64,000 nucleotides of DNA from an uncultured Candidatus Binatia bacterium. GTDB lineage: Bacteria; Desulfobacterota; Binatia; Bin18. The notes under the pieces were generated by a model. That model was not told the DNA's origin and ran no database searches. It saw only the letters and a list, made by a program, of their open reading frames with translations. The stretch is taken from NCBI GenBank assembly GCA_965214605.1, contig OZ243961.1, positions 3,584,001 through 3,648,000 of the forward strand, read 5' to 3'. Numbering within the stretch: position 1 is the stretch's first letter; every line of letters begins with the position of its first letter. Of this stretch, positions 1-18,820 are shown in pieces. The translations under genes and the position numbers were made by a program.

Positions 1-1169
1 TCGGTCTGAACGGCTCGGGTAAAACCACCACGGCTGGCAAGTTGGCCCGCTATCTCAAAGTTGAACAGGCCCGCGCGCCCTACCTCGTCCCAGCCGACAC
101 CTTCCGTCCGGCTGCTATTGATCAACTGCGCATTATTGGCCAAGAAGTCGGGGTACCGGTGTACCCGACCCCTAACGACGGTTCGGCGGCCGATCCGGTC
201 AGGATTGCAGCCGCCGGTGTTGACGCCGCCCGGCGCCGGGGGGCGGATGTGGTCATCATCGACACCGCCGGCCGACAGCAGATCGACACCGACCTGATGG
301 AGCAGCTCGGTCAGCTCAAGGCCGCCGTCAATCCGCATCAGACCTTGCTTGTGGCCGATGCCATGACCGGCCAAGAGGCGGTCAATGTGGCCCAAGGTTT
401 CCATTCGCAGCTAGCGCTTGACGGCGTTATCCTGACCAAGGTTGAGGGCGACGCCCGGGGTGGGGCGGCCCTGTCACTGCGCTCGGTGACCGGCAAGCCA
501 ATCGTCTTCATCGGGATCGGGGAAAAGCTTGATGCTCTGGAAGCCTTTTATCCAGATCGGGCTGCATCGCGTATCCTGGGCATGGGCGATATGTTGTCGC
601 TGATCGAGAAGGCTGAAAAGGTCTACGATCAGCAACAGGCCGAGGTGCTCGAAAAAAAGCTGCGTAAAAACCAGTTTACCCTGGCAGATTTTGCCGAGCA
701 GATGCGGATGCTCAAAAAAATGGGCTCAATCTCCGACCTCATGTCTCTGATCCCAGGTGGCAAAAAGGCCATGCAGAACACCGACATGGACCAGACCGAG
801 AAAGAATTCAGGCGCGTTGAAGCCATTATCTCGTCCATGACCAAACAGGAGCGACGTCGGCCCGAAGTGTTAAACGGCAGTCGTCGACGGCGGATTGCAA
901 ACGGCAGCGGGACACGGGTGGCCGAGGTGAATCGTTTCCTCAAGCAGTACGCGGAAGCCAAGAAGATGATGCATAAACTCTCCCAGTTCAACGGCGCAGG
1001 CCAGCTCGGCGCTCTGAAAAGCGAATCCGGTCTGGGCCAGTTGGGTCAACTGGCCCAGTTGGGAAAAAAGACCGGAAAGTCGGGCAAGACGTCGGGCAGG
1101 CCGGGTAAAATGAGTAAACTGGCCAAAAAGGCCCACAAAGCACGTAAATCGCTGTCATTCTGGGGGTAA
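1..1169 (+). CDS. ffh: Signal recognition particle protein Ffh (5' truncated by window edge)
   Basis: [11 protein letters not shown]-loop from nt 3, DTFRPAA, DTAGR, [14 protein letters not shown], M-domain [11 protein letters not shown]; precedes rpsP. Confidence 0.97.
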
Positions 1170-1176
1170 AAAATCT

Positions 1177-1431
1177 ATGGTTAAAATTCGGCTGGCCCGT
1201 CATGGGGCCAAAAAACGCCCTTTTTATCGTATTGTCGCGGCTGATTCACGTTTTCCGCGTGACGGCCGTTTTATCGAACAACTCGGATTCTACGATCCCA
1301 CCAAGGACCCGGCCGTTGTGCAGCTCAAAACGGACAAACTGAACAAATGGCTACAAAACGGCGCTCAACCGACCGATACTGTTGCTCGGCTGATTAAAAA
1401 GAAAAAGGCCGGGCAGGAACCTGTCGCCTAA
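1177..1431 (+). CDS. rpsP: 30S ribosomal protein S16
   Basis: [34 protein letters not shown]. Confidence 0.98.
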
Positions 1432-1450
1432 AGCGCACGGGGAACATCCT

Positions 1451-1687
1451 ATGAAGGATCTCGTCTTATACCTGGCCAAGGCTCTGGTGAACCATCCTGA
1501 CGAAGTCGAGGTGAACGAAATACCAGGCGAGACTGCCTCGATTCTCGAACTCCGAGTCTCAAAGGACGATCTGGGTCGGATTATTGGCAAACAGGGACGG
1601 ACTGCCAAGTCGATGCGGACTCTGCTCAATGCCGCAGCCTCACGGACAAATCGTAAAGTTGTCCTTGAAATCGTCGAAGAAAAATGA
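1451..1687 (+). CDS. khpA: KH-domain RNA-binding protein KhpA
   Basis: DLGRIIGKQGRTAKSMR GxxG motif; position between rpsP and rimM. Confidence 0.93.
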   Translation: MKDLVLYLAKALVNHPDEVEVNEIPGETASILELRVSKDDLGRIIGKQGRTAKSMRTLLNAAASRTNRKVVLEIVEEK

Positions 1688-2207
1688 CTCTCTGGGCAGA
1701 GACTGCCTTGTTTCGCTCGGCCGTCTGGTCAAGACGCACGGCGTGGGCGGGGAATTGCGTCTCCGGCCCTACGCGTCTCCCTGTCCGACTCTCAAAAAAG
1801 GGCTGATCGTCCAGCTTCAGGACCACGCCGGGCAACTGACCCCGGCTCGTATCACCAAGCTGCGGCCCCACCCTCCTCTTCTGCTGATCGGCTTTGAGGG
1901 GATAGTCTCACGTGAACAGGCCCAGAGTTTGTGTGGCCACATTGTTACGGTTCGTGAGCACCAACTCCCCCCGCTCCGAGACAACGAGTTCTACTATTAT
2001 CAGACGGTCGGGCTCACTGTCCTGACCACCGCCGGACAAGAGATCGGTACAGTGCGGGAGATCTTCTTCTCCGGCGGACATGACGTTTGGGTTGTGCGTC
2101 AGGGGAAGAAAGAGTACCTGATCCCTATTACCCAAGAAATTGTCCGTAGCATAGACATTCCGGGCCGACAATCAGTGATTGAGCCTTTGGAGGGGCTGCT
2201 CGACTGA
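1665..2207 (+). CDS. rimM: Ribosome maturation factor RimM (start uncertain; TTG 1659/1665)
   Basis: [32 protein letters not shown]-terminal EGLLD. Confidence 0.93.
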
Positions 2208-2214
2208 GCGCTGT

Positions 2215-2979
2215 ATGCAGTTCCACGTCATTACCATCTTTCCCGACCTGTTCTCCTCACCGTTGTCGGTGAGCCTGTTAAAAAAGGCCCAAGACCGAGG
2301 GCTAGTGGCGTGTCATGTCCATAATTTGCGCGACTACGCGGGTGGTAAACATCGCTCCACCGATGATACGCCCTATGGTGGTGGCTATGGCATGGTCATG
2401 AAGCCCGAGCCGATCTTTGCCGCGCTCGAAGATGTGTGTCATCGACTGTCGCAGCCAAGACGTATTCTGTTATCCCCCCAGGGTACCCCGCTGACCCAAC
2501 ACAAGGTCGGTCAACTGGCGGCTGAGGGGGCGCTTGTGCTGGTGTGCGGACGCTATGAGGGGGTCGACGAGCGGGTCCGGGCGGCGGTCGATGAGGAGAT
2601 CTCGGTCGGCGATTATGTGTTGAGTGGTGGAGAAACCGCCGCCTTAGTCGTCATTGACGCGGTTGTCCGTCTCGTCCCCGGGGTGGTGGGCCGTCAAGAA
2701 TCGACCCAGGAAGAGTCGTTTAGCACCGGACTGTTGGAATACCCCCAGTATACTCGGCCTGAGGAATTCAGAGGGTTGCGCGTGCCCGAGGTGCTGCTGT
2801 CAGGTAACCATGCCGATATTGCCCGATGGCGGCGCCGTCAAGCGCTGTTGCGAACCCGTGATCGACGTCCCGAACTGTTGGACAGAGCCCCTCTCAGCCT
2901 GGAAGAGAAACAGTGGTTGGCAAGAAAGGGGGGCGATGATGACCATGAGAAGAAATCATCGCCCCCCTGTGGGAAGTAA
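2215..2979 (+). CDS. trmD: tRNA (guanine37-N1)-methyltransferase
   Basis: [46 protein letters not shown]. Confidence 0.98.
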
Positions 2980-2985
2980 CAACGC

Positions 2986-3573
2986 ATGGCTGATCTGTAT
3001 TTGGCCCTCCTCCATCACCCTGTCTATGACAAGGAGCACAAGGTGGTGACCACCTCAATCACTAATATGGACATCCATGATATCTCTCGCTCGGCAAAGA
3101 CGTATGGGGTCAAACGGTTCTTTGTCGTCAATCCGGTTCCAACCCTCCGTGCCCTGGCCGAGAAGATCGTAGACCACTGGCGGGTCGGTTACGGCAGCAC
3201 CTATAACGTAACCCGTAGAGACGCGCTCGAAATCGTTGCCTTAAGCCAGCATCTAGAGGACACGCTTGAGGCGGTGCAGCAAGAGGCTGGGGAACGGCCG
3301 CGGCTGATCGCCACCTCAGCCAGAGACGGTGGCGTACGTCTTTCATTTGTCGAGCTGCGGCACCGGCTTGAGAGCCCAGGACCTCCGTTGCTGATCCTGC
3401 TGGGTACCGGGTGGGGGCTGACCGAAGCGGTTTTGGATCGGGCCGATGATTTTCTTGAGCCAATTCATGGAACGGGCGTCTACAACCACCTGTCCGTTCG
3501 GGCGGCGGCAGCAGTTATCTTGGATCGGCTGCTGGGAGCACGGTCGCTTGACCGACCGACAGGGGCAGGATAA
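2986..3573 (+). CDS. SPOUT-family RNA methyltransferase (TrmD-associated)
   Basis: LYLALLHHPV, TNMDIHDISR, GTGWGL, YNHLSVRAAAAVILDRL; typical trmD neighbour in Deltaproteobacteria. Confidence 0.88.
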   Translation: MADLYLALLHHPVYDKEHKVVTTSITNMDIHDISRSAKTYGVKRFFVVNPVPTLRALAEKIVDHWRVGYGSTYNVTRRDALEIVALSQHLEDTLEAVQQEAGERPRLIATSARDGGVRLSFVELRHRLESPGPPLLILLGTGWGLTEAVLDRADDFLEPIHGTGVYNHLSVRAAAAVILDRLLGARSLDRPTGAG

Positions 3574-3745
3574 GCTGGTCCGTCCTTAGAGAGACAAGAG
3601 AAGACAACCCTAGCGCTTGGCATTCAGCCATCGGCCTTCAGCGAGCACAACGAGCGATTTTGACCAAAAGCGGGCAGGTCGACCCTACCCGCCGGATTCG
3701 CCCCTCCATGCTGATCGACCGCAGCGCTCAGAGAGGAACACGGCC

Positions 3746-4189
3746 ATGAGCAAGAGCATTGATCAGCTTGAAGCCCGCCAACTGAGAACAGATTTGCCCG
3801 ACTTCAAGCCTGGCGATACGGTCCGCGTCCACGCCAGAATCGTTGAAGGCGACAAGGAACGGATTCAGGTCTTTGAGGGTGTAGTGATCCGCCAGGCCAA
3901 TAGCGGCAACCGGACCACGTTTACCGTTCGGAAAATTTCCTACGGCGTCGGTGTTGAGCGTGTCTTTCCGCTCCACTCGCCACGGATTGATAAGATTGAA
4001 GTGACGGTGCGTGGTAAAGTTCGACGGGCCAAGCTGTACTATCTGCGTGGGCTGCGGGGGAAAGCCGCCCGGCTGAAAGGTGAGCGCGTGCGTCCTGTGT
4101 CAGAGAGTAAAAAGGCCAAAGCTGCGGCCCGAGTCCAATCCGCGGAAGCTGTGGCCCTGGGGACTGACACGGCTCAGTCTGCGAAATAG
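3746..4189 (+). CDS. rplS: 50S ribosomal protein L19
   Basis: [40 protein letters not shown]; SD GAGG before ATG 3746. Confidence 0.98.
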
Positions 4190-4215
4190 CCCCCAGTAGT
4201 GCCAGCCGGGCCCCC

Positions 4216-4947
4216 CTAGTCCCGCCCTCGTGAGTACTCCCACCAGGCTAGGCTGACCACCACCCCAGCCAGAATAATCGGGCTGGCATAGCCATAGGCG
4301 GGCGATGCATACGCCAGCAACTCGTCAAAGCGGCCAATCAGGATCGACATGCGAGCCATAACCGTATAGCCGAAAGCCGCGCCAAAGGAGACCATTAAGA
4401 AAGACATGCCGATGCGGGCCACGTAACGCGTGCCGGCCCTATGCTCGACCGAGAAGAAAAAATAAAACAGCACGCTCACCACCCCAACCAGAATAAGCAC
4501 GGTGTTTAGCTCGGCTAGACCAAGCCGCCAGCCCTCAGATCCGACTGACACCAAGGGTTTGAGGGTCCCCTGAACCTGTTGGAGGACAAACGAGGACAGC
4601 AGTCGAGGGATGGCGACGCCAGAACTGATCCCCAGGATAAAGGCAAAAGCAATCCGGCTCAGCCAGGCCCAGGGCGGAACCAAACGTGCCAGCATGAAGA
4701 GGCCTAGTCCGGCGGCGGCGAGCAAAAGCCAGTCGGCCTGCTCGACCAACGGCACATAGAGCTTTTTGACCATTACCTCGTGGTAGGTAATGGTCAGCAC
4801 ATAGCCGACTGAGGCGCCGACAAAAATGTGTTCGGCCAGCTTAAAGAGGGGGTTGTCTTTGTACAAGAAACTGTAGATGAATAGACTCAGCAGGCTGGCC
4901 ACCCAGGCGCCGAACACAAGCTCGCTACTGGCTAGCTGAGGGCTCAT
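4216..4947 (-). CDS. Uncharacterised polytopic membrane protein (GlmL-like operon)
   Basis: About 7 hydrophobic segments; SFLYKDNPLFKLAEHIFVG and FLMVSFGAAFGYTVMAR; ATGA overlap with the upstream gene. Confidence 0.8.
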   Translation of the reverse strand: MSPQLASSELVFGAWVASLLSLFIYSFLYKDNPLFKLAEHIFVGASVGYVLTITYHEVMVKKLYVPLVEQADWLLLAAAGLGLFMLARLVPPWAWLSRIAFAFILGISSGVAIPRLLSSFVLQQVQGTLKPLVSVGSEGWRLGLAELNTVLILVGVVSVLFYFFFSVEHRAGTRYVARIGMSFLMVSFGAAFGYTVMARMSILIGRFDELLAYASPAYGYASPIILAGVVVSLAWWEYSRGRD

Positions 4948-5792
4948 GACGACCGTCTCCCCGAATCTCGCCCGGCTTGGCCGCTCAGAAAATACAGTCC
5001 GTTGCACACCACGATCAGCCCAATGATCAGAAAGTGAGTTGTCGACTGGGCGTCCATACCGGCGCTGGCCTTACCTGGCATATTGAGCAGGGTTTCATAC
5101 TCTGCCGCACCCCGCAGGCCACCCAACAAGCCTTGAATCTGGCCAGTATTCAGCAGCGGATAAAACTTGGGCACGCTGACCGCAACACTGCCGCCGCCCA
5201 GCTCAAAGCCGTATTTTTCCTTGCCGTACACGTACCAGGTATCTAGGCCAGGAAAACCGGCACTCAGACTGAAGACGTAGGTGACATCTCGCAGGCTGCG
5301 AATCTTGCTGACGACCGGAAGCGTCGGTGTTGGCGTGCCGTAATAATCGGTCGGAAAGGCCGTATACAGATCCTGACCCATGCTCAGAATAGCGTTGGCT
5401 TCGCCCGGCGCATAGCCCAGAAAAACGTAATCTTGGCCGTAGACCTTGCCAAACTCCTGCCCAATTTGGGTCAGGACCGACTCGGCCATACTCGTTCCAG
5501 TCGACCATAAGGTGAGGCCGATGAGGGTGAGGTTGCGGCGAAAGGTATGGCGTAGGAGGGCGACCGTCATCGGCTGCAGCTCCGGTTTGGAGGCCGGATC
5601 ATAGTCAAACGAAATCACCACATGGGCGCCCTCGGGCAGCTGCTCAATATAGTTGTAGACGCGTTGAACCTCGGCCGAAATACGGATCGGCAGGCCAAGT
5701 GGATAGAGCAGTGGGATGAGGACGAACAGACTGATAAGGATGAAAATAAAACGGCGGTCAAGGCTGAGGATACGCTGAGCAAAGTCTCGCAT
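4944..5792 (-). CDS. Uncharacterised membrane-anchored alpha/beta protein (GlmL-like operon); alternative start 5810
   Basis: N- and C-terminal TM helices flank a soluble domain (YGQDYVFLGY, GLLGGLRGAAEYE). Confidence 0.8.
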   Translation of the reverse strand: MRDFAQRILSLDRRFIFILISLFVLIPLLYPLGLPIRISAEVQRVYNYIEQLPEGAHVVISFDYDPASKPELQPMTVALLRHTFRRNLTLIGLTLWSTGTSMAESVLTQIGQEFGKVYGQDYVFLGYAPGEANAILSMGQDLYTAFPTDYYGTPTPTLPVVSKIRSLRDVTYVFSLSAGFPGLDTWYVYGKEKYGFELGGGSVAVSVPKFYPLLNTGQIQGLLGGLRGAAEYETLLNMPGKASAGMDAQSTTHFLIIGLIVVCNGLYFLSGQAGRDSGRRSS

Positions 5793-5802
5793 ACTACCGT
5801 TC

Positions 5803-6441
5803 CTACTCATCCTCTCCGCCCAAATAGGACCGTTCAACACCAAAAATAATCTTGATTGAGGTCGCGATGCCGCCCAGACTGACGCCGATTAAGATGGCCC
5901 GTTGAGCCGCGGTATTGGGCACCTGCATAATCCAGTCCGCAGTTTGTCCCAGACCAGCTAGCATGTATTCGCCAAGCGGGACCCGGCCGGCCATGACGAT
6001 AAGGGCGGCGATGAGCAAGACGCTTGCCTCTAGGGTGCGCGCCCGAAAGGCGCGATAGGCCGCCGAGGCGACAAAAAAGGCCAGCAGCGAGAACATCGTG
6101 CTCTGCAGGACGACGATGACATAGCTGTACAGCCAGCCAAACGCGCTACCCTCGGCTTTGCCCCCGGACCACAGGCCTGCCCCAAGAACGATCAGCAGTG
6201 ACACAAACAGGACACCGCTGTAGCCCCAACCGGCCTCTTGGCGTGCGATCTTGACATAATGGACGTGCAGCAAGCTGCCGACACCGAGGAGAATCGCAAA
6301 CCCGGCGATAATCTGATTCCAGACCGAGACTTCAGTCAGCAGCGCCTCTGAGGCCGGATGGGGAATGTAGTACTGAGCGGTGAACGTCAGGCCTAGCACA
6401 AAAGCGATGAGCAATGGGAGAGTCCGTTTCCAGAAAGTCAT
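5803..6441 (-). CDS. Uncharacterised polytopic membrane protein (GlmL-like operon)
   Basis: About 6 TM segments; FSLLAFFVASAAYRAFRAR, PNTAAQRAI..G. Confidence 0.8.
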   Translation of the reverse strand: MTFWKRTLPLLIAFVLGLTFTAQYYIPHPASEALLTEVSVWNQIIAGFAILLGVGSLLHVHYVKIARQEAGWGYSGVLFVSLLIVLGAGLWSGGKAEGSAFGWLYSYVIVVLQSTMFSLLAFFVASAAYRAFRARTLEASVLLIAALIVMAGRVPLGEYMLAGLGQTADWIMQVPNTAAQRAILIGVSLGGIATSIKIIFGVERSYLGGEDE

Positions 6442-6447
6442 ACGCTC

Positions 6448-7701
6448 CTATCGAAAATCTGAAAAAATTTGCACAAAGCTCTGGGTGCCGGCAATGTTGC
6501 TGAATTCGCTCAGGCTCAGGGCCAGCGTTCCGACTAGCAAGACTCCTAGCAGCACGGCTTTGCCGAGGTCTTGGCCGCGCAGGGTCCCGACTAGGGCAGG
6601 CTCGCGGGACAGATAGGCGCTGGCCGCGTACAGTTCCTCGCCGATCAGGGTATAATCGCAGGTTGTGATAAAAAATGGCAGCTGATGATCGGCATCGGTT
6701 CCGGCGATTTGGATGGCTCCGGTCGACGCTCCGGTTTCAGCCAACAGCAGAGATTCAGCGTAGTAGTAGCCCATAAAAATGTTGGCCGCAGGTTTGTCGC
6801 GCAGTATGATGCCGTCCACCGCAGCGGTATACGCAAACTGGTCTTGAGTAATGAAGAAATTGGTCTCTTCAGTGTAGGTATCCGGGCGCCCGGCCGTCAA
6901 ATAGGCTTCTTTGACCATTTCTTGGCAGATAGCCATGACAATCGCTGAGCGGTGGGGAACCCGCAGTTCAGCACCATAGCGAGCGACCCGCTTTGACACT
7001 TCGCTCAGAATAACCGTAGCGGCGATAGTTGACAGATTTGACGAATCGCCACTGCCGCTGAGATCGCCACTACCGGTCAGATACAGGACCGGCTGACCCA
7101 TTTCGGTCGCTCGTCCGACCGCCTCCTCGACTGCGTCAAGACCGGGGATGCGCCGCAGAAAGACGTGCGGGTTGTTCCGGGCGCGGCGAATAGACAGCAG
7201 CACGGCCGCGCCAAAGGCCAAGACCAGGATCAGATTATTCAGTTTCGACCAGCGAAATAGATTGGCCTGTGGGGTAGCTGAAACCGTTCGACTCTCAAAA
7301 CGGTGTTGGCCTGTCAACAGGACAAGTCTGAAAAAAGCGCTGCTGTCCGTATCTAGCTCGACTTTCACCAGATGCCAGTCGGGCCGGGGCGAACCCCATA
7401 CCCACCAGGCGCCGGCCAGGTCAGTTTCATATTGGGTGTCGGCGGCAAACTCGGCGATCGGGCTAAACGAACCGTCCGGCTGCTCGCTGTGCAGCACCTG
7501 ATAGGTGGCCTCAGGCGTCTCATATGGCAGCGCCTGCCAGCGGAGGACAACACTGCCCCCGGCATCCCCGGGCGTATCACTCGCCTCAAGCGACACAAAA
7601 GCGTCCTGGCCAAAAGCCGGAAAACCGCCGAGCGCCAAAAGCGTCCAGCACACTACTATCAGCAGGGGAAGCCGAAACACCGGCTGGACGCTTTTGTTCA
7701 T
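6448..7701 (-). CDS. Signal peptide + FN3-like domain + TM + DUF6754-like domain protein
   Basis: Hydrophobic leader (AFG-Q), beta-rich DTPGDAGGSVVLRW domain, TM, then RRIPGLDAVEEAVGRATEMG...GEELYAASAYLS (recalled as DUF6754). Confidence 0.72.
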   Translation of the reverse strand: MNKSVQPVFRLPLLIVVCWTLLALGGFPAFGQDAFVSLEASDTPGDAGGSVVLRWQALPYETPEATYQVLHSEQPDGSFSPIAEFAADTQYETDLAGAWWVWGSPRPDWHLVKVELDTDSSAFFRLVLLTGQHRFESRTVSATPQANLFRWSKLNNLILVLAFGAAVLLSIRRARNNPHVFLRRIPGLDAVEEAVGRATEMGQPVLYLTGSGDLSGSGDSSNLSTIAATVILSEVSKRVARYGAELRVPHRSAIVMAICQEMVKEAYLTAGRPDTYTEETNFFITQDQFAYTAAVDGIILRDKPAANIFMGYYYAESLLLAETGASTGAIQIAGTDADHQLPFFITTCDYTLIGEELYAASAYLSREPALVGTLRGQDLGKAVLLGVLLVGTLALSLSEFSNIAGTQSFVQIFSDFR

Positions 7702-7711
7702 GCGCCAGTCC

Positions 7712-8854
7712 CTAGCCCTCAATGATTTCTACATTTGCCCGAGGAATCGTCACCTCCCGCCCGTCTGGCAGGCGGACGACTAAAACCCGCACCCGGCTCT
7801 CGGTGGCGGTGAGGTGTAATTCGGCCGGTAGCGCCCGGACCCGAGCCAGCAAACCAAAGTGGGGCTCACGAATAATCCGCACGGTATCACCGATGTGTAT
7901 TCCGGGTGTATCAATCGCTTGAACTGCTTGACAGTCCTGTGGATTTGCGCCCGTTTCTTTCTGCCTGAGCGGAATAATCACCTCCGGTCGCATCACCCCG
8001 GCTCGAATCTGGGTGGCCCCGCTGCACGACGCGAGCTGGCCCTCGTTGGCGCTCAGCAGCTCAAAGCTGCGCTGGGCCATCGGAATGCAGCCAAAACCCT
8101 CTGTGACCAGCAGGCTAAAGCCGAGCTGCTCAGTCCCGGTAATGGCCACACCCAAGTCATAGCCCAGCAGTTCTTTCAGGTCTTGGTCGTGGACACCGCC
8201 CACCACCAGGGCGTGGACGCCGAGGGCTCTGGCCTTGGCGAAAGTCTCTTTTGGGGCCAACGCCCCACCGATCACGATCTGACCGGCGTGGTCCGACCGC
8301 AGGTGCTGCGGGGTGAGGACTTCATCCGGCCTGAGGACTGCCCGTTTAATCCGTCCCGTTGTTTCTCCGCCCAGTCCAAAAATCGCCTGGACCAGGGCGC
8401 ACCGCGACTCAAGCACGACCCCTTGTTGGGGAATAACCTCGACGACCGTGCCGTCGATATAGGCCGACAGGCGAATCACCTCGGGTGGCTCGCGCAGAAA
8501 GACCTGACCGGTGACCGTTGAGATGCTATCAACCGTACCGCTCACCGGGGCCCGTACCTGGGTTTGAAACCACCTGAGCCAGGGCTTGTTTTCGGCCAGG
8601 ATTTCCCCTTTTTCAATACTGTCGCCCTCGTGTTTGAGAAGATAGGAGTGAATGTCGGCCGGCGTGATGCTGAGCTTATTGACCACGTTGATCGGATAGA
8701 CCGCGCCAGGCAGTGCGGTGTGGGCGAGCTGTGTTGCCGCCGTGACCCGCTCACCCTGGGCAACCTCCACCTGGCCGGGGATAGGAAGCAGGCGTTGTTT
8801 GCGAACGATCGTGTCGGGTGAGACACGTAAGCCGGGGGTGTATGCGTGCGCCAT
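7712..8854 (-). CDS. Uncharacterised protein with barrel-sandwich-hybrid-like repeats and a C-terminal KOW-like motif
   Basis: GQVEVAQGERV, GDSIEKGEILAE..APVSGTV; IGDTVRIIREPHFG; abuts the GlmL-like gene. Confidence 0.75.
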   Translation of the reverse strand: MAHAYTPGLRVSPDTIVRKQRLLPIPGQVEVAQGERVTAATQLAHTALPGAVYPINVVNKLSITPADIHSYLLKHEGDSIEKGEILAENKPWLRWFQTQVRAPVSGTVDSISTVTGQVFLREPPEVIRLSAYIDGTVVEVIPQQGVVLESRCALVQAIFGLGGETTGRIKRAVLRPDEVLTPQHLRSDHAGQIVIGGALAPKETFAKARALGVHALVVGGVHDQDLKELLGYDLGVAITGTEQLGFSLLVTEGFGCIPMAQRSFELLSANEGQLASCSGATQIRAGVMRPEVIIPLRQKETGANPQDCQAVQAIDTPGIHIGDTVRIIREPHFGLLARVRALPAELHLTATESRVRVLVVRLPDGREVTIPRANVEIIEG

Positions 8855-8857
8855 ACG

Positions 8858-10660
8858 TCAGTCCGGATCAGGGTACAGCTCCAGCGCGGTCTGCCAGGCT
8901 CGGAGCTGCGCAGTACGCTCGGCCTTGTCTTGGGTCAAATTGAGCGGCCGACCTCGGGCGTCGAGAATCAGGCCGACAGTCCCACCTATGACCGGGGCGC
9001 TGAGAGTTTTGCCCGATCCGGCCCCAAAGTCAAAACCCCGCCTCGGAGTGAGCTCGATCCGTGCTTCTCGGCCCTCTGCTAAGCCGAGGTGCTCCAGGCC
9101 GCCATAGGCTAGGTCGCCGTCAACGGTCTGCCCGTCAGGAGAGACAAGACGGTAGGAGAAACACGGCTGGCCCGCTTTTCCGCGTCCGCTCGGTGCGGCG
9201 CAGGTTCCGAGCGGGATCAAACAGTCTTTGAATAACACCTCGGTCGCCGCCTCTTCATGAACGGTGGAGAGTACCCCGAGGTGGGGCATCATAAAGATAC
9301 TATCGACCGCCAACCGGGTGAGGCCCAGCGGCTCATAGGCATCGATCAGCATCAGCATGGCCTGGACCCGGCGTGGGGCATGGGACACAACGCCGCCGCT
9401 ACCGATGATCAGGTCTAAGGCCAGCATATCGATCAGACTCTGGCCCGAGGTGGTCTGGGCAAAGACGTCGGAGACCGAGCGTTGTTGCTGGACGCCTTTC
9501 AGTTCTACCGCCAGCTGTTTATGGTGCTCAAGGGCTAAGCGCAACGCCTCACGGGCGAGCGCCTGCTCAACCTGGAGGTCCATTACGGTTTGCGGGATTG
9601 TGGTCGGTCGGATCATTTTATTTTTGATCTGGTTGCGCAGGCTTTGCTCGTCACAGTCAAACGGCAACCACCGCTGGATATTGTCCAACTCGGTTTCGGC
9701 AACCACGTTCGACACGCTATAACTCATGCCCAGATTAGCGCTGACAGTCCGGTTGAAGATCGTTTGGAAGACTGAGAAGATGTCGGTGGTTGCTCCGCCG
9801 ATATCGACCCCGATAACATTCAGCTGAGTCCGTCGAGCCAGGGTCTCGATCATCAGGCCGACCGCCGCCGGCGTTGGAATAATCGGCGCGTCGGCCCAGT
9901 CAATCAGCCGCTTATAACCCGGAGCCTGAGCCATGACATGTTCGAGAAACAGGTCGTGGATCTTATGCCGCGCCGGCATGAGATTTTCGCGCTCCATAAC
10001 AGGCCGGATGTTGTCGGTGACGGACAGGGCTGCCTTGTCGCCAAGGAGGTCTCGAATCTGCTTCTGCGCCTCGATATTGCCGGCATAGACAATCGGCAGG
10101 TGGTAGCCCTGGCCTAAACGCGGTCGCGGCTCTGCGGCGGCAATATACTCGGCCATCTCGACTACGTGCGAGACCGTGCCTCCGTCCGTACCGCCGGCCA
10201 GTAAAATCATATCAGGCCGCAGACGACGGATGCGTTCGATCTTTTTATAGCCGGGCCAATCGTCGTTCGAGGCCAGACTATCCATCACAATAGCCCCAGC
10301 GCCTAAGGCGCAGCGCTGGGCGCTCTCAGTACTCATGGCTTTGACCACGCCGGCGACCATCAGCTGCAGACCGCCGCCGGCACTGCTGGTCGAAATATAG
10401 AGATCCACTCCGGTCTCAGCCTGGGCTGGGGTGAGAATATGCTCGCCGTCGAGGATCGTCCGACCGGATAACTCCTCGATCTCCTGAATAGCGTTTAACA
10501 CCCCGCGGGTGACATCCTCAAAGGGCGCTTCGACCGTTGTCGGGGCTTCACCGCGGTGGGTTTGACGGTATTCCTGGCCGACCTTCTGGATTAGAATGGC
10601 TTTGGTTGTGGTGCTGCCACAGTCTGTGACCAGGATGATCTTGAGATTCTGAGGATTCAT
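8858..10660 (-). CDS. GlmL/MutL (glutamate mutase L)-family ASKHA ATPase, extended form
   Basis: TDCGSTTTKA, SSAGGGL, LLAGGTDGG, PTP, VDIGGATTD, RTVSANLGMSYS, IGSGG. Confidence 0.88.
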   Translation of the reverse strand: MNPQNLKIILVTDCGSTTTKAILIQKVGQEYRQTHRGEAPTTVEAPFEDVTRGVLNAIQEIEELSGRTILDGEHILTPAQAETGVDLYISTSSAGGGLQLMVAGVVKAMSTESAQRCALGAGAIVMDSLASNDDWPGYKKIERIRRLRPDMILLAGGTDGGTVSHVVEMAEYIAAAEPRPRLGQGYHLPIVYAGNIEAQKQIRDLLGDKAALSVTDNIRPVMERENLMPARHKIHDLFLEHVMAQAPGYKRLIDWADAPIIPTPAAVGLMIETLARRTQLNVIGVDIGGATTDIFSVFQTIFNRTVSANLGMSYSVSNVVAETELDNIQRWLPFDCDEQSLRNQIKNKMIRPTTIPQTVMDLQVEQALAREALRLALEHHKQLAVELKGVQQQRSVSDVFAQTTSGQSLIDMLALDLIIGSGGVVSHAPRRVQAMLMLIDAYEPLGLTRLAVDSIFMMPHLGVLSTVHEEAATEVLFKDCLIPLGTCAAPSGRGKAGQPCFSYRLVSPDGQTVDGDLAYGGLEHLGLAEGREARIELTPRRGFDFGAGSGKTLSAPVIGGTVGLILDARGRPLNLTQDKAERTAQLRAWQTALELYPDPD

Positions 10661-11013
10661 ACCCGTTGGTAGAGAAGAGCGGTGAGCCGCTCAACACTGT
10701 CACGGCGTTCGAGCAAGACGGCTAGGCGTTCCAGCTCCGTTGCGTCGCACACCAGCTCCAAGAACGGGCGCAAACCGTGCAAAACCTGGCTCCCGATAAA
10801 ATTGAGCGGTCCGACAGACTCCAAAAGCAGTATGGCCGGCGCTTCTAAGCGTCGCCGGGTAAGACGCCGCGCAATGTTTTCTAGCAGCGCATGCTCCTCC
10901 GCCGTCAGCGGCGAGGGATGAGAGGAGAGAGCAAAGGCATGGCTGAGGGCGTGGCGCAGTTTTTTCCAGGCAGACACGCGGTTGTATATCTCAGATTTGT
11001 TTTGCCGGGGCAA
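10657..11013 (-). CDS. Small helical hypothetical protein heading the GlmL-like operon
   Basis: 118-aa ORF, stop overlaps the next ATG (ATGA); PAILLLESVGPLNFIGSQ. Confidence 0.7.
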   Translation of the reverse strand: MPRQNKSEIYNRVSAWKKLRHALSHAFALSSHPSPLTAEEHALLENIARRLTRRRLEAPAILLLESVGPLNFIGSQVLHGLRPFLELVCDATELERLAVLLERRDSVERLTALLYQRV

Positions 11014-11115
11014 TGGGAGGGGGAGCGATCCGCTCTCTGATCACAGTGACGCAGTGAGGATGTCTGTCCTGCCCCCTTCTCTCGTCCCCCCTCTCTGCTC
11101 GCCGCTCAGCGCGGG

Positions 11116-12105
11116 TCATTCACTGTACAAATGACACCGGACCTGGTGTGCGGGAAACTGTACAAGCGGTGGCGGAACGGTTTTGCAGTGGTCCATGACT
11201 TGCGGACACCGCGTATGAAACGGGCAGCCTGACGGAGGGTTGAGTGGGGACGGGACATCGCCAGTGAGGACAGCTCGTTCCGTCCGCGCAGTTGGATCGG
11301 GCACGGGATTGGCAGACATGAGCGCCAAGGTGTACGGATGCCGGGGGTTGCGAAAGAGATCGTCAACCGGGGCGACTTCAACGAGCTTGCCGAGATACAT
11401 GACCGCCGCCCGGTCGGCGATATGTTCAACGACGCTCAGGTCGTGCGAAATAAACAAATATGACAGTCCAAAATCACGCTGTAGATCCTGGAGGAGATTG
11501 AGAATCTGGGCTTGGATGGACACGTCTAGCGCGGAGACCGGCTCATCACAGACGATAAACTGTGGTTGGAGCGCTAAGGAGCGGGCGATGCCAATGCGCT
11601 GACGTTGTCCACCCGAAAATTCGTGCGGGTAGCGTGACCGATACGTTGGCGAGAGGCCAACCCGCTCTAAGAGGGCGCTAACCTGACGGTCTAACTCATC
11701 TCCTCGGGCGAGCGCGTGGACTTTAAGCGCCTCACCAACAATCGCCCCGACGGTCATACGTGGGTTGAGTGAGCTATAGGGGTCTTGGAAGATGATCTGC
11801 ATTTGCCGTCGAGCCTGGCGAACCTGGGCTGGGGTCAACTGAGAAAAGTTCTGCCCCTGAAAAAACACCTCTCCGGCAGTGGGTTCGATGAGACGTAAAA
11901 GGGTTCTCCCAACCGTGGTTTTGCCACAACCCGACTCGCCGACTAGTCCGAACGTTTCTTGGGGGTGAATGGCAAAGGACACACCGTCAACCGCCTTAAC
12001 CCACGCAGAGATGCGCGAGAAGATACCGCTGCGCACCGGGTAGTATTTCTTGAGGTCTCGCACTTCGACTAAGGCCGAGGTAGAGGGGGTCGGATCGTCT
12101 GCCAT
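11116..12105 (-). CDS. Oligopeptide/dipeptide ABC transporter ATPase (OppF/DppF type)
   Basis: [37 protein letters not shown]-terminal [10 protein letters not shown]. Confidence 0.95.
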
Positions 12106-12113
12106 CGTCTGAA

Positions 12114-13103
12114 TTATTCCTCGCAGTGCACTCCGTGCTGGTCGTACAGCCAACAGGCGGTCTCGTGGCCGAACTCGACGCTTGTCACCCGCGGCTGTTG
12201 AGTTGGGCAGCAATCGAGAGCCGCCGGACAACGAGGAGCAAAAGCACAGCCTGGGAGGTAGAACAACGGTGAGGGAACAGTGCCCGTGATAGCGGGGAGA
12301 CGCTCGGCACGGCGCCCCCGACGGGGGACAGCTTGGAGTAAGGCCTGGGTGTAGGGGTGGGCAGGCTTTTGAAATAGAGCGCGAACCGGGGCGCGTTCAA
12401 TAATTTTGCCCGCGTACATAACTGCGACGGTCTGGGCAAATTGCGCCACGACGCCGAGGTTATGGGTGATGAGAAGAATCGCCATCCCGATCTCATCTTG
12501 GAGTCGTTTGAGCAGGTCGAGAATCTGGGCCTGAACAGTGACATCTAAGGCGGTTGTTGGTTCGTCGGCAAGTAATAAATCGGGGCGGCAGGCAAGGGCT
12601 ATGGCAATCATGACCCGTTGTTTCATCCCGCCCGACAGCTCGTGTGGATATTGGTCAAAACGCTGTACGGGCGAGGGAATACCGACCAATTCAAGCAACC
12701 TCAGCACTTCCTGTTTTGCCTCCTGCTCAGATAGTCCTTGATGGAACTGGAGGACTTCTCTGATCTGATTGCCAATCGGAAAAACTGGATTCAGCGAAGT
12801 CATGGGTTCTTGAAAAATCATCCCAATCGATTTGCCACGAATGGCCCGAAGGGCAGGTTCAGGCAAGCGGACGAGGTCCTGCCCCTGATACAAAAGAGAA
12901 CCGTGTACAATGCGGCCTGGAGACTCAATCAGACGCATAATCGAAAGGGCAGTCGCGGACTTCCCGCATCCAGACTCGCCAACGAGGGCCAGCGTCTGTC
13001 CCGGCTCGATTGTGAGATCAATGCCACGAATGGCCTGCACTTCCCCTTTGTCGGTGAAAAATGAGACGTGGAGGTCGCGAATGGTGAGTAGAGGAGCGGT
13101 CAT
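12114..13103 (-). CDS. Oligopeptide/dipeptide ABC transporter ATPase (OppD/DppD type)
   Basis: [39 protein letters not shown]. Confidence 0.95.
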
Positions 13104-14075
13104 CTAACGATTCCGTAACCGGGGGTTGAGCGCCTCACGCAGACCTTCGCCGACAAGGTTAAATGCGAGGACAACAACAAAAATGGCAAGACCTGGAATA
13201 AAAAAGAGCCAAGGAGCATCAAAGATGAACCCTCTGCCGCTGGCCAGAATATTCCCCCAGGTTGCATACGGTGGCTGCACGCCAAATCCGAGAAAGCTCA
13301 ACCCAGACTCGGTGAGGATAGCACCGGCTACCCCAATAGTGGCCGAGACGAGCACCGGAGCAATGGCGTTGGGAACCATATGCCGAAAGATAATACGGGT
13401 GGCGGACATTCCTAGGGCGTGCGCGGCGACCACAAAGTCCTGTTCACGCAGGGCTAAAAACTCGGCGCGCACAAAACGTGCTGTGGCCATCCAGCTCGTC
13501 AGGCCAATCACAATCATAATGTTGTAGATACTTGGCGGGAGGAGCACTATGACAGTCAGAATGAGAAAGAAAGTTGGAAAGCACAGCATAAGGTCGGTAA
13601 ATCGCATAATCAGCGTATCGACCGTGATGAGGCCGAGCTTGACGGTGCCGTAAAAGCCGGCCAAGCCACCCAAGATAATCCCAATCGTGACCGAAATGCC
13701 GACAGCGATAAATCCGATCGATAGCGAGACAAACGATCCCTGCAGCATACGCGCAAACACATCCCGGCCCAGTTCGTCCGTGCCGAGCAGATAGAGGCTC
13801 CACAGCGGGTGGTGTCCGGCTGGGATGAGATCAGTCGACGCCGCGGACAGGGGCGGTAAAAATTTGTCCGGCAGGCGCGTGGTGACTGGATCGAAAAGAA
13901 CAATCCATTCGGTCAAGATTTTCCCCGCAGCGGCCATGAGCACTAGCAGCGCGAGGATTCCCAAACTGCCGAGGGCTAGCCGATCTTTCTTAAAGATCCG
14001 CCAGGCTTCCTGGAGCGGCGTCTCCGCTTGCGCAAGATCGGTCTCTGCTGTGGTGGGGGGGGAGGCAGCCATCAT
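13104..14075 (-). CDS. Peptide ABC transporter permease (OppC type)
   Basis: LGTDELGRDV, EAA-like loop, ESGLSFLGFG, FNLVGEGLREALNP. Confidence 0.94.
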   Translation of the reverse strand: MMAASPPTTAETDLAQAETPLQEAWRIFKKDRLALGSLGILALLVLMAAAGKILTEWIVLFDPVTTRLPDKFLPPLSAASTDLIPAGHHPLWSLYLLGTDELGRDVFARMLQGSFVSLSIGFIAVGISVTIGIILGGLAGFYGTVKLGLITVDTLIMRFTDLMLCFPTFFLILTVIVLLPPSIYNIMIVIGLTSWMATARFVRAEFLALREQDFVVAAHALGMSATRIIFRHMVPNAIAPVLVSATIGVAGAILTESGLSFLGFGVQPPYATWGNILASGRGFIFDAPWLFFIPGLAIFVVVLAFNLVGEGLREALNPRLRNR

Positions 14076-15037
14076 TACTGTAACCGGATGCGGGGATCAA
14101 CAACGGCGTAGAGTACGTCTGAAACGAAAGTGCCGGTCAAGGTCAACGTTGCGGCAATGAAGTTGAGAGTCAAGATAACGGGAAAATCCCGGGCCAGGAT
14201 AGCTTCGTAGCCGAGCCGTCCTAAGCCGGGCCAGGCGAAAATCTGTTCAAAGATGACGGAGCCGCCAATTAATCCTGGTAACAAAAACCCGAACATCGTG
14301 ACAAAGGGCAGCAGTGCGTTGCGTAAGGCGTGGCGATAGATCACGGTGTCTTCGGTCAAGCCCTTTGCCCGTGCCGTGCGCACATAGTCCTGGCGGATAA
14401 CTTCGAGCATTTGGGACCGAACATAGCGAGAAAGAATGGCAATGCCGGCCACCGCCGACATGAAGGACGGTACAACGAGGTGCCAGAGTCTGTCCATCCA
14501 GCGAAAGGCGGGCTGGGCGTTTTCCATACCAAATGTCCGCATCCCAATAACAGGAACGTTGAAAAGGTCTACGACCCATTGAATAGCGAGATAGGACAGA
14601 AAAAAGCCTGGAATAGAGATAAAGGCGTATGCTACGAAGGTGGTTGAGCGATCAAATGAAGAGCCACGCCGGATAGCTGCTTGGATGCCGGTGGGAAAAG
14701 ACAAGCTCCACACAATGATTGTGGCGCAAATGAAGAGGGGGAGGGAGTTGAGAAATCGACGCCAGATTTTTGGGAGAACGGGCTGGCTGTCTTTAAACGA
14801 CTTCAGCTCGCCGGTTGCCAGATCATGCAACCAGTAGATGTACTGTAAATAGAGCGGTTCGTCTAAATGGAACGCCTCACGAATGCGAGCGATATCCTCA
14901 GGCTTCATGCGAGGATTGGCTGGGTCTACCTCACTCGGCTCACCTGGCGCAAGATGGACGACTGAGAAGGCCAGGATGGAAATAATGACTAAGAGAACGA
15001 GACGCTGGAAAATCGCCCGAAAAAGAAAAGCCGGCAT
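14075..15037 (-). CDS. Peptide ABC transporter permease (OppB type)
   Basis: HLAPGEP, DYVRTARAKGL, HALRNALLP, EQIFAWPGLG, YAVVDPRI. Confidence 0.94.
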   Translation of the reverse strand: MPAFLFRAIFQRLVLLVIISILAFSVVHLAPGEPSEVDPANPRMKPEDIARIREAFHLDEPLYLQYIYWLHDLATGELKSFKDSQPVLPKIWRRFLNSLPLFICATIIVWSLSFPTGIQAAIRRGSSFDRSTTFVAYAFISIPGFFLSYLAIQWVVDLFNVPVIGMRTFGMENAQPAFRWMDRLWHLVVPSFMSAVAGIAILSRYVRSQMLEVIRQDYVRTARAKGLTEDTVIYRHALRNALLPFVTMFGFLLPGLIGGSVIFEQIFAWPGLGRLGYEAILARDFPVILTLNFIAATLTLTGTFVSDVLYAVVDPRIRLQ

Positions 15038-15058
15038 CGCTTGCCTGAGCCCGCCCAC

Positions 15059-17179
15059 CTAGAAGGCGGGGGTGAATTCCAGTTTCCGCCATTTATTAAA
15101 ATAGAAGCGGATGCTGCCGCTCTTGGTCGGGTAAATTTTTTCGTAGCGTTCATCGCCGTCGGCCTCTCTTTCGACCAAGACAATTTTTTTGTCTAAGACC
15201 ATTGTTGACCGTGCAACGTACAGAAAGGTGTAGGGCTGGTCTTCGGCGATCAACTGGTGCAGGCGGTGGGCTAAGGCGCGTTGTCGGGCGGGGTCATACT
15301 CTTGGCGAATACGGACGATTAGCTCATCGGCGTGGGGATTGTTATACCCGACAAAGTTGAGCTGATGAGGGCCCGTCTGGCTCGAGTGAAAAAGGTCGTA
15401 CAGGTCGGGATCTATGCTCATGCTCCAGCCCAAAACAACAGCATCAAACGAGCCCGTATTGACAAAATCTTTCAGGAAGACCGTCCACTCAAAGACCTGG
15501 GTATGACATTGCACCCCAATCCTTTTCCAGGCGTCCTGGGCAATTGTCATGATATTCGAACGGACGAGATTTCCATTGTTCGTGATCAGCGTGAACTCAA
15601 AGAGTTGCCCGTCTTTCTCAAGCCAGCCTTCGTCGTTGCGTCGCCAGCCGACTTCTTCGAGCAAACGTTGGGCACCGTCCGGGTCATACTGGAGGGGGGG
15701 GATGGTCGGGTCATACCACTGGGTTTGGCGTGGGTAGGGACCGGTGATCTGTTCACCTTCTCCGTATAAGAGGTAGGTGATGATCTCATCAACATTAATA
15801 GCCATGCCAAGCGCCTGCCGGACACGTTTATCCGCAAACAGAGGGCGGCGATTGTTATACGCGATGTATGAATACCCGAGTCCCAGGCTGGAAAAAGACT
15901 GATACGCATCCTCCTGTTTATAGCGAGCAACTTGATGCGGCCGCACTCCGTAGGAGTCAATCGCCCCACTTTTAAACTCAATCTCTTGAGTCAAGAGTTC
16001 GGGAAGGATGCGAAAATAATAGTTTTCATATTCAGGGATCCGATCCCAGTAGTCGGTGTTATGCTTGAGGTGAATAAATTCGTCACCCTGCCACTCAACA
16101 AAGCGAAATGGACCAGTCCCGATTGGAGAACGGTTGAACTGACTGTCACGCATGCCAAATTTTTCCCGCGCCGTGTCCGACAACTGCCGGGTCTCCATTT
16201 CTGTTTCAAGCGCCTGGGCGTTGAGTAAATGTTCGGGCAAAATACCCGTGGTCCAGGCGTTAATAGCCGGCGAATAGAGGCGTTTGTAGGTGATCTGGAC
16301 GGTGTGGGGATTAAGAATCTCAACGTGTTTAATCGGCTCGTAGGACGAGGTCCGGGGCGAGATATTGCGCGGATTCATAAGGGCTTCATAGGTGAATTTG
16401 ACGTCACCGGCGTCGAACGGATGGCCGTCGTGAAAGCGAACGTCCTGGCGCAAATGAAGCTCAATAACCGGGTTATGCTCTGCCACAGGTAATAAGTCTG
16501 GAAAGTGTGCCTGTACGCTCTCAGTCAAAGCGGACTGTGGCACAGTGATGTGGTCGTGGTAGGGAAAGTTTTGGAAATACGCTTCACCCAAGAGTGGGGT
16601 GAGCGGCTGAAAGAAATCTTGTTCGACCTGCTGTAAGGCGAACTCAATGCGCTCAGGAACGCGAATGCTGAGGTCAATGGGTTCTTTCGCTTGTCCCTGC
16701 TCGTCCGGTGTAGCAATTATGAGTGTTTCGGTTTTTTCCTCGGTAGGCAGCAGCCGCATTGAAAGGAGGAGGCCGTCGAATTCGGGGAGGTGGCCATCCG
16801 CCTGAGCACGAGACAGGACCTCAAGCAGCCGCGCTCCGGTCGCGCGGCTCCCATCAGGCAAGATGAACTGTGGGCGGGCGAGCAGATAGGCTTTCTCCGT
16901 AATGGACCACTCTGTGGCCAGCCGACCCCGCAGGTTGAGGTTCTCGTCCATATCGAGCAGTCCGTCGAATAGGAGGTCGGTAATGTGACCGCTTGCCCCA
17001 TCTGAGTGGAGGATAGGATTAAGCAGTCTGGCGTCGGCAATAGAGGCCGTAATATGGGTGCGGAGGCGGGCAGGATTGCCAACAGACTGCTTTTCATAGC
17101 TCGGAACCCAGAAGTATGACTGCAACAAAAGCGCAATCAAGGCAAGGGGAGTGAGAATGAGAAGCTGTTTTGCACGCAT
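15059..17179 (-). CDS. Family-5 (peptide/nickel) ABC substrate-binding protein with an internal insertion
   Basis: LRQDVRFHDGHPFDAGDVKFTY, PIGTGPFRF, RVRQALGMAIN; N-terminal hydrophobic anchor. Confidence 0.92.
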   Translation of the reverse strand: MRAKQLLILTPLALIALLLQSYFWVPSYEKQSVGNPARLRTHITASIADARLLNPILHSDGASGHITDLLFDGLLDMDENLNLRGRLATEWSITEKAYLLARPQFILPDGSRATGARLLEVLSRAQADGHLPEFDGLLLSMRLLPTEEKTETLIIATPDEQGQAKEPIDLSIRVPERIEFALQQVEQDFFQPLTPLLGEAYFQNFPYHDHITVPQSALTESVQAHFPDLLPVAEHNPVIELHLRQDVRFHDGHPFDAGDVKFTYEALMNPRNISPRTSSYEPIKHVEILNPHTVQITYKRLYSPAINAWTTGILPEHLLNAQALETEMETRQLSDTAREKFGMRDSQFNRSPIGTGPFRFVEWQGDEFIHLKHNTDYWDRIPEYENYYFRILPELLTQEIEFKSGAIDSYGVRPHQVARYKQEDAYQSFSSLGLGYSYIAYNNRRPLFADKRVRQALGMAINVDEIITYLLYGEGEQITGPYPRQTQWYDPTIPPLQYDPDGAQRLLEEVGWRRNDEGWLEKDGQLFEFTLITNNGNLVRSNIMTIAQDAWKRIGVQCHTQVFEWTVFLKDFVNTGSFDAVVLGWSMSIDPDLYDLFHSSQTGPHQLNFVGYNNPHADELIVRIRQEYDPARQRALAHRLHQLIAEDQPYTFLYVARSTMVLDKKIVLVEREADGDERYEKIYPTKSGSIRFYFNKWRKLEFTPAF

Positions 17180-17212
17180 ATTCCACCTGAAGCCTTACTC
17201 AAACTTCTGAGA

Positions 17213-17292
17213 TTTGTCAATTAGACATAGCCGAACCCGGTGATTGCCCCGGATCGCCCGCCCTGGTTTGTCAATTAGACGTAGCCGAACCC
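17213..17292. repeat. 26-bp direct repeat (17213-17238 and 17267-17292) in a divergent promoter region
   Basis: TTTGTCAATTAGAC(A/G)TAGCCGAACCC twice, one mismatch, 54-bp period. Confidence 0.85.
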
Positions 17293-17392
17293 CTCTCCCG
17301 TCTTTTGAGAAGGGTGGGTCGAAAGACGCATGGCTGACGACCCAAAATCTGTGTATAGTGGAAAACCCTTTCTCTATAAATGGAGCATCGCT

Positions 17393-18325: not shown

Positions 18326-18329
18326 GTCG

Positions 18330-18566: not shown

Positions 18567-18657
18567 CTAGAGGTCGGCTGTTGCCATACCTGGCAGCAGA
18601 AACACCTCATCCCTTGACATTCACTGGCCTGACCGGCTCCCGATAGCCGTGTGCCTC

Positions 18658-18808: not shown

Positions 18809-18820
18809 CCGACAGGGGAG

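Follow-up and report, generated by a model that had tools for sequence, protein, structure and literature searches.

The window examined here is a stretch of 64,000 nucleotides from the genome of an uncultured Candidatus Binatia bacterium (GenBank assembly GCA_965214605.1, contig OZ243961.1, positions 3,584,001 to 3,648,000). Seven consecutive open reading frames, designated g1 to g7, lie on its minus strand at positions 4216-11013 (Table 1). They represent an undescribed, highly conserved system composed of two modules, g2-g3, which includes an ATPase of the ASKHA (actin/Hsp70) fold, and g4-g7, whose products are membrane proteins. The intergenic gaps, from g1 to g7, are -4, 3, 10, 6, 10, and -4 nucleotides, and the operon is flanked on one side by a family-5 ABC importer encoded on the same strand and on the other by rplS on the opposite strand. 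The host genome, which is 99.99% complete, carries one copy each of the seven genes.

Much of a first-pass annotation made from the letters of this DNA stands. It had recognized a tight, co-oriented operon of seven genes, intact nucleotide-binding motifs in g2 (DCGSTTT at residues 13-19, DIGGATT at 286-292, and GSGG), an arrangement of signal peptide, FN3 domain, transmembrane helix, and DUF6754 domain in g4, to which the structural model adds a second transmembrane helix, polytopic proteins in g5 and g7, and a doubly anchored g6. Its account of g3 as a hybrid-barrel and KOW protein is borne out by an AlphaFold2 model but overlooked the swivelling domain that lies between the two. In Pfam and NCBIfam, nothing above cut-off was found for g1, g5, g6, or g7. 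Promoter and terminator scans of the operon gave signal near shuffle level, no Rfam family matched in window positions 1-20000, no match to the operon was found in viral contigs, and 0/7 operon proteins matched the PADLOC anti-phage models.

Table 1. Genes of the operon and the adjoining importer, in window coordinates
Feature	Coordinates	Strand	Start position	Description
g1	10657..11013	-	11013 (TTG; alternative GTG 10977)	~118 residues; small soluble protein, family-less in Pfam/NCBIfam
g2	8858..10660	-	10660	600 residues; long-form GlmL-like ASKHA (actin/Hsp70-fold) ATPase, PF13941
g3	7712..8854	-	8854	380 residues; nested barrel-sandwich hybrids 16-150, swivelling beta/beta/alpha domain 152-296, KOW 313-380
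g4	6448..7701	-	7701	417 residues; signal peptide, outward FN3 35-147, transmembrane helix 151-176, cytoplasmic Rossmann-like DUF6754 domain 186-366, transmembrane helix 368-400
g5	5803..6441	-	6441	212 residues; six transmembrane helices, predicted N terminus inside
g6	4944..5792	-	5792	282 residues; transmembrane helix, outward-facing alpha/beta domain, transmembrane helix; predicted orientation opposite to g4
g7	4216..4947	-	4947	243 residues; six core transmembrane helices plus variable seventh; predicted N terminus outside, opposite to g5
Family-5 (peptide/nickel type) ABC importer	11116..17179	-		Binding protein, B, C, D, F; context, outside core; ends 102 nucleotides upstream of g1

Conservation of the operon across phyla

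Proteins of the system fall into 2,094 clusters when grouped at 50% identity, and Nitrospira and the anammox Brocadiae are among its carriers. A scan of species-representative genomes for DUF6754, the domain family of g4, matched at least 612 stretches, of which the best 80 were analysed, with the frameshifted loci L031 and L055 excluded from alignments. These 80 loci cover Nitrospirota, Methylomirabilota, Binatia, Elusimicrobiota, Planctomycetota, Latescibacterota, WOR-3, Poribacteria, and Sumerlaeota. The genes g5, g6, and g7 are present in all 67 loci with 3 kb available downstream of g4, and g2 and g3 in 45 of the 60 with 4.5 kb upstream. All seven genes fall within 10 kb at 39 of the 53 loci whose flanks are long enough on each side, so the operon is not a chance grouping. 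The expectation of the first-pass annotation that the genes would be conserved together proved correct, and many phyla share their order as well.

Gene adjacency was tallied over 158 loci, with tandem modules counted more than once. The pairs g4-g5, g5-g6, and g6-g7 are adjacent in 154, 148, and 143 cases, g3-g4 in 93, and g2-g3 in 85, while the gene that immediately follows g1 is g2 in 75 cases and g4 in 18; g3 accompanies g4 in 98 of the 158 loci. The g1 protein is a probable adaptor whose attachment is to the membrane module. In six Planctomycetota genomes g3-g4 is split from g5-g7, and g5 and g6 were located elsewhere in all six, as well as in one intact control; in two single-contig genomes they lie megabases from g3-g4, with g3 still adjoining g4. 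The genes are thus retained jointly even when unlinked.

The two modules also go together in genome content. Among 201 genomes of Planctomycetota (the phylum of genome G061), DUF6754 occurs in 56, PF13941, the family of g2, occurs over its cut-off in 57, and both occur in 54, a co-occurrence in 54 of 59 positive genomes that are related to one another, so that the counts are not independent. In the family of the host, DUF6754 is found in 29 of 36 genomes and PF13941 in 25 (one a stub). DUF6754 was found in 0/150 other genomes of the host's own phylum, so the operon probably reached the host family through transfer.

Several variants of the locus were noted in passing. In another genome of the host's genus (G006, L108:8557-9371) the operon has been deleted, leaving stubs of g1 (57-116) and g2 (1-105) between oppF and rplS, with a short g7-like tail also visible by eye. 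An eighth gene of about 145 residues with two predicted transmembrane helices occurs at L074:5795-6223 and 28 other loci; in Latescibacterota, Sumerlaeota, and Planctomycetota it is usually placed before g1, and a search of the host genome found no copy. Tandem membrane modules with differing ectodomains share one operon at L134, L139-L141, L150, L162, L167, L174, L176, and L086, and L134 has a fused OppD/F gene between its two modules. The locus L021 is titled Enterobacteriaceae, a label that is probably wrong, as its g2 is 82% identical to that of the window and groups with it.

The ATPase g2 and its soluble partner g3

The g2 protein matches PF13941 at 422.9 bits against a gathering cut-off of 27 (E 2e-126), and falls below the curated cut-offs of NF040745 (GlmL, 224.8 against 475), NF040744 (Or-4, 210.1 against 600), and TIGR01319 (147.7 against 204.05). 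Its ASKHA nucleotide-binding motifs are conserved across 46 homologues and align with those of short GlmL, relative to which g2 is about 110 residues longer, the extra residues being C-terminal. Identity is 57-82% to other long forms across phyla and 27-30% to short forms, and the long forms, g2 among them, make up a clade apart from three short forms (support 100/100, with long branches).

GlmL reactivates glutamate mutase, according to a figure legend that itself cites another paper (PMC4682846). The g2 protein is the sole PF13941 match over cut-off in the host genome, in which neither a search with the GlmE family nor one with the GlmE/GlmS proteins of a relative turned up GlmE. GlmE was detected in 1 of the 36 genomes of the host family and in 2 of the 201 Planctomycetota genomes, neither of the latter with DUF6754, and in 0 of the 54 that have both DUF6754 and PF13941. 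No GlmE/GlmS homologue was found in the 158 loci except the control L116, and where GlmE does occur (G039 and G250, positive controls) its PF13941 neighbour is a short form. The ATPase thus tracks with DUF6754 and not with GlmE. PF09043 (lysine/ornithine aminomutase) was not found in the host genome, and control genomes gave no match either. The host has three acyl-CoA mutase genes, one of them adjoined by what we take, by eye, to be a MeaB-like gene; its B12-binding proteins, likewise judged by eye, are presumably acyl-CoA mutases, methionine synthase, and radical SAM enzymes. These comparisons indicate that g2 can largely be set apart from the mutase helpers and is unlinked to the GlmE that its database name implies. 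A second mutase-free kind of PF13941 protein was seen at L117:7155-8636 and L118:7003-8439, where short forms of 478-493 residues (family f4) occur in loci that each also hold a similar 346-residue gene; genome G047 has neither GlmE nor DUF6754.

The AlphaFold2 model of g3 (predicted local distance difference test score, pLDDT, 88.2) has three distinguishable parts. The N-terminal nested barrel hybrids resemble the N terminus of RnfC (Z 8.0) and of NqrA (Z 7.7). The swivelling domain matches that of Enzyme I (Z 10.2, root mean square deviation 2.5, 104 aligned residues), and also rifampin phosphotransferase (Z 9.1) and SteA (Z 7.5), and the KOW domain matches that of NusG (Z 8.5). A relay of the phosphotransferase type through g3 was considered and rejected as unlikely because H222, the sole phospho-histidine candidate in the swivelling domain, is found in only 70 of 95 homologues.

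That g2 and g3 belong together is also seen in two genomes in which the ATPase is fused to g3-like domains (L121 and L122, 824 and 911 residues, 44% identical to g2). These fusions (L121:5275-7749, L122:4778-7513) stand alone, with the membrane modules elsewhere in those genomes, and genome G356 has two 839-residue open frames of the same fusion type. According to PMC7674605, the alpha subunit of the glycerol dehydratase reactivase contains an Hsp70-like ATPase domain and a swivelling domain, and a subunit bound to the latter is set free when ATP is hydrolysed. Because the domain content of g2-g3, an ATPase with a swivelling-type fold, matches that of the reactivase, we infer by analogy that g2-g3 may grip and release a client. 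When covariation between proteins was compared at effective depths of 36-66, the tails were heavier for the pairs g2-g4, g2-g3, and g3-g4; the comparison lacked a shuffle control, conservation of the columns confounds it, and it was set aside.

The membrane module and the loss of the ATPase in one genus

The g4 protein is a clear member of PF20539 (DUF6754; E 4e-111, model pLDDT 91.8). Its DUF6754 domain, a six-stranded Rossmann-like structure, is about 50% or more identical among 150 listed cluster representatives, while g4 homologues as a whole range from 180 to 1341 residues, with an outward part that varies among FN3 domains, PQQ-type propellers, and HEAT repeats (1, 11, and 2 cases, respectively, in 56 mostly long homologues). 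Minimal forms of 258 residues have no ectodomain. Invariant polar residues include E316, E322, Q331, Q340, D349, and E356 in the DUF6754 domain and E71, Q218, and E233 in g6.

Orientation in the membrane can be predicted from two types of evidence. The content of lysine plus arginine per residue along g5, from the N to the C terminus, is 0.27/0.06/0.27/0.06/0.28/0.07/0.16, and in g6 it is 0.28-0.29 at both termini and 0.12 beside the domain. Over 67 homologues this bias places the g4 domain inside, the g6 domain outside, the N terminus of g5 inside, and that of g7 outside, with a weaker bias in g7 than in g5. Insertions of at least 12 residues in g5, g6, and g7 are all at predicted outward sites; those in g5, up to 392 residues long, lie only in outward loops, and those in g7 only in outward loops 2 and 4. 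At L071 the outward loop between helices 3 and 4 of g5 even contains a copy of a g6-type domain (E 8e-41). As charge bias and insertion sites agree, a two-sided layout is predicted in which g4 and g6, and likewise g5 and g7, have opposite orientations. In three Planctomycetota loci (L148:10230-12074, L161, and L175) the same g5 loop has an insertion of 390 residues; the one tested did not match the other profiles of the module.

Comparison with described families gives little further guidance. No Pfam family and no solved structure matched g5, whose ESM Atlas clusters are all nameless (Bacillota, Chloroflexota, and WOR-3 being commonest); g6 has no Pfam or NCBIfam family and no named match in the ESM Atlas; g7 has no Pfam or NCBIfam family and matched no solved structure. 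Searches of PDB sequences with the operon proteins were empty or weak. That the membrane proteins matched no family in Pfam, NCBIfam, or PDB agrees with the first-pass annotation.

A natural experiment is provided by genus g8, a member of the host's family that a quick tree of g6 places as the sister group of the host genus. DUF6754 is present in 7 of its 10 genomes and PF13941 in 0/10; direct searches found g3 in 0/5 and g2 in 0/4 genomes, single-contig genomes included, with the control G002 positive. The seven genomes share the order g1-g4-g5-g6-g7, with nothing of g2-g3 between. The same tree places the loss of g2-g3 as a single event nested inside Binatia (Shimodaira-Hasegawa-like approximate likelihood ratio test, SH-aLRT, 99), with five single-contig genomes among those affected. 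Across these seven genomes (21 non-independent pairs, synonymous divergence about 0.4), the ratio of nonsynonymous to synonymous substitution (dN/dS) is 0.097 for the cytoplasmic part of g4, 0.084 for g5, 0.119 for g6, 0.131 for g7, and 0.22 for g1. These values indicate that the core has a selected function without the ATPase in this one lineage at least; elsewhere both are nearly always found together. Because g8 has lost g2-g3 and yet keeps g1 and g4-g7 under purifying selection, the ATPase looks like a switch rather than an obligatory motor. The first-pass proposal of an ATPase repurposed to "energise or regulate" a membrane complex is therefore weakened in its first half (PF13941 in 0/10 genomes, core dN/dS 0.08-0.13), and a role in regulating or remodelling fits better.

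Possible functions and comparison with known systems

Family-5 ABC importers are the only transport genes recurrent across lineages, being found at 18 of 138 loci in all. Peptide-type ABC genes occur at 13 of 80 loci, in records of Binatia, Latescibacterota/Gemmatimonas-labelled, Elusimicrobiota, Sumerlaeota, and Brocadiae, and at 5 of 58 Planctomycetota loci (53 genomes), 4 of the 5 co-oriented; L087, L090, and L096, with weak and unrelated ABC ATPase matches, were left out of the count. At L069, L085, L091, and L097 the importer genes are inserted inside the operon itself. The host genome has two family-5 importer loci in 4.37 Mb, an estimated 1% or so per 19-kb interval. Outside Binatia, the binding proteins share just 22-30% identity with that of the window, which suggests that the importers were recruited repeatedly. 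The importer link is real but is seen at fewer than half of the loci, and carriers of nickel complexes and of glutathione belong to family 5 as well. As to whether OppD/F might use g4-g7 as a permease, the four genomes with a lone OppD/F beside the module have OppC genes elsewhere. No finding points toward secretion. The binding protein of the window (15059-17179, minus strand) is unusually long at 706 residues, its family match beginning only near residue 235. Farther along (58251-59636, plus strand), a 461-residue open reading frame resembles a truncated Cas3-type helicase; the surrounding GC content is lower (0.52).

How might these parts work together? The explanation we favour, tentatively and at a little less than an even chance, is a gated importer, or a device linked to import, with a reactivase-type ATPase as its switch. 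In such a device g4-g7 would assemble as one two-sided complex in the cytoplasmic membrane, with the alpha/beta domain of g4 in the cytoplasm, that of g6 outside, and the six-helix proteins g5 and g7, in opposite orientations, making up the core; swappable outward domains would confer specificity or anchoring. The g2 and g3 proteins would act as a single reactivase-like unit of ATPase and swivelling domain that, through an ATP/ADP cycle, takes hold of the DUF6754 domain on the cytoplasmic side of g4 and lets it go again, thereby gating the core or resetting it, with g4 as the docking hub and g1 as an adaptor on the membrane side. Its job would be the uptake of peptide-like cargo, or the control of that uptake, alongside family-5 ABC importers. 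The parts of this proposal differ in strength. The g4-g7 proteins very probably form a physical complex, and it is reasonably probable that the ATPase acts on g4. A transport role is evenly balanced, and peptides as the cargo are a doubtful guess. Rather unlikely is a new class of transporter in which g4 plus g5 and g6 plus g7, products of an ancient flipped duplication, would form a pseudo-symmetric inverted heterotetramer with alpha/beta gates on both faces, an ASKHA ATPase swapping on and off the cytoplasmic gate, and a passive mode after loss of the ATPase. No actin-fold, subunit-swapping chaperone is known to operate a membrane transport machine.

A number of observations weigh against this explanation. 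No peptide ABC gene is nearby in 67 of 80 and 53 of 58 loci, and 25 Nitrospirota loci (for example L051:6473-7723) have instead a MEMO1/AmmeMemoRadiSam B gene near g7. The fold matches of the DUF6754 domain are generic (Z up to 9.9, under 10 throughout). Although g4 and g6 align end to end, with a best E value of 0.005, their homology is not above control (108.6 against 105.5 +/- 10.2 for block shuffles), and that of g5 and g7 is no better in profile comparison than a reversed control. The reactivase GdrA/DdrA is absent among the listed fold matches of g3, and no direct match to g2-g3 is listed. Finally, an apparent relaxation of the g4 docking domain after loss of the ATPase in g8 (7/96 against 0/132 in a first count) was rejected, since under a lineage-weighted control the cytoplasmic domain of g4 is not significantly more relaxed than g5-g7 (5/70 against 3/105, p 0.27), and Nitrospira that keep the ATPase gave 6/76 in the same test. 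With p at 0.27, the case for docking on g4 rests on gene order.

Among other explanations, a transmembrane sensor or relay is unlikely but survives best. Outward domains would detect an envelope cue, g5 and g7 would pass the change inward, and the g2-g3 ATPase switch would be the output. Such a device would account for hypervariable ectodomains on a highly conserved cytoplasmic domain, and for genomes that have two or three DUF6754 copies with different ectodomains and a single ATPase. The KOW domain of g3 is also suggestive, its best Foldseek match being Thermotoga NusG (E 3e-6), but the TM-score of that match is just 0.15, no regulator is recurrent among the neighbour genes of the loci, and the g2-g3 output is gone from genus g8, where selection still maintains the membrane part.

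Two further alternatives are improbable to a similar degree. In the first, the system would build or modify the envelope, with catalytic or substrate-holding alpha/beta domains, a lipid, glycan, or peptide flipped or presented by g5 and g7, and a substrate activated with ATP by g2, as hydantoinase/oxoprolinase ATPases do. The invariant polar residues of DUF6754 and g6, a weak hydantoinase match in g2 (E 2e-5), GT-B glycosyltransferase domains among the tied DUF6754 fold matches, and two insertions of Elusimicrobia type with an LIC_10190-like membrane protein (one scanned) are consistent with it, but no match rises above the generic Rossmann level, and a kinase step could hardly be lost genus-wide while the remainder stays selected. 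The second, the strongest form of the first-pass proposal, is a primary active pump with g2 as its obligatory motor. The ATPase does accompany DUF6754 in 54 of the 56 positive genomes of the 201, and in 4 of 5 genomes with a locus lacking it the ATPase is elsewhere in the genome; the single loss in Binatia, with the core under purifying selection, argues the other way. That g2 is a B12-mutase reactivase with an incidental operon position, as its PF13941 membership and the acyl-CoA mutases of the host might suggest, is largely refuted and very improbable given the distribution of GlmE, the short-form neighbour of GlmE where it occurs, and the putative MeaB-like gene beside one acyl-CoA mutase.

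A literature search, which covered neither subscription papers nor supplements, found no study of DUF6754/PF20539 or of this system. The system is widespread and very conserved, as the identity of 57-82% among long-form ATPases across phyla attests, but the models that its ATPase matches take their names from glutamate mutase. If the gated-importer explanation is correct, it would represent a new membrane-machine architecture in which ASKHA ATPases are put to a new use, and would correct a misleading annotation. The natural variants, including the ATPase-less form, the 258-residue g4, and the g2-g3 fusions, would be useful as constructs.

Known systems illustrate both the resemblances and their limits. 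With GlmL/MutL and Or-4, g2 has in common its ASKHA family and its motifs for phosphate-1, phosphate-2, and adenosine, but it is under all three NCBIfam cut-offs, forms a separate clade with low identity and a longer C terminus, and sits with g3 and DUF6754 rather than with GlmE/GlmS. The GdrA/DdrA reactivase has the same pairing of ATPase and swivelling-type domain, here split over g2 and g3 or fused, a likeness at the level of fold class only; the apparent client here is a complex in the membrane, and g3 adds barrel hybrids and a KOW domain. The Rnf and Na+-NQR complexes have a barrel hybrid in RnfC/NqrA like that of g3. Their RnfA/E and NqrD/E subunits are a pair of six-helix proteins of about 200 residues in opposite orientation, but the g5 and g7 alignments contain no conserved cysteines, the operon has no Fe-S or flavin subunit, and there is no Rnf-Nqr Pfam match. 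Inverted pairs of the small multidrug resistance (SMR) type, such as EbrAB, are likewise adjoining membrane genes with opposite predicted orientation, whereas here the kinship of the halves is undetectable, and the soluble domains on both faces and the ASKHA ATPase have no counterpart there. In contrast to an ABC transporter, none of the seven genes encodes a P-loop ABC ATPase, the ABC genes being a separate neighbour, and in contrast to the phosphotransferase system, the swivelling domain of g3 has no invariant phospho-histidine. The system fails membership in GlmL/Or-4, Rnf/Nqr, the phosphotransferase system, and ABC transporters, and belongs only to PF13941 and, through g4, to PF20539, a family without a described function.

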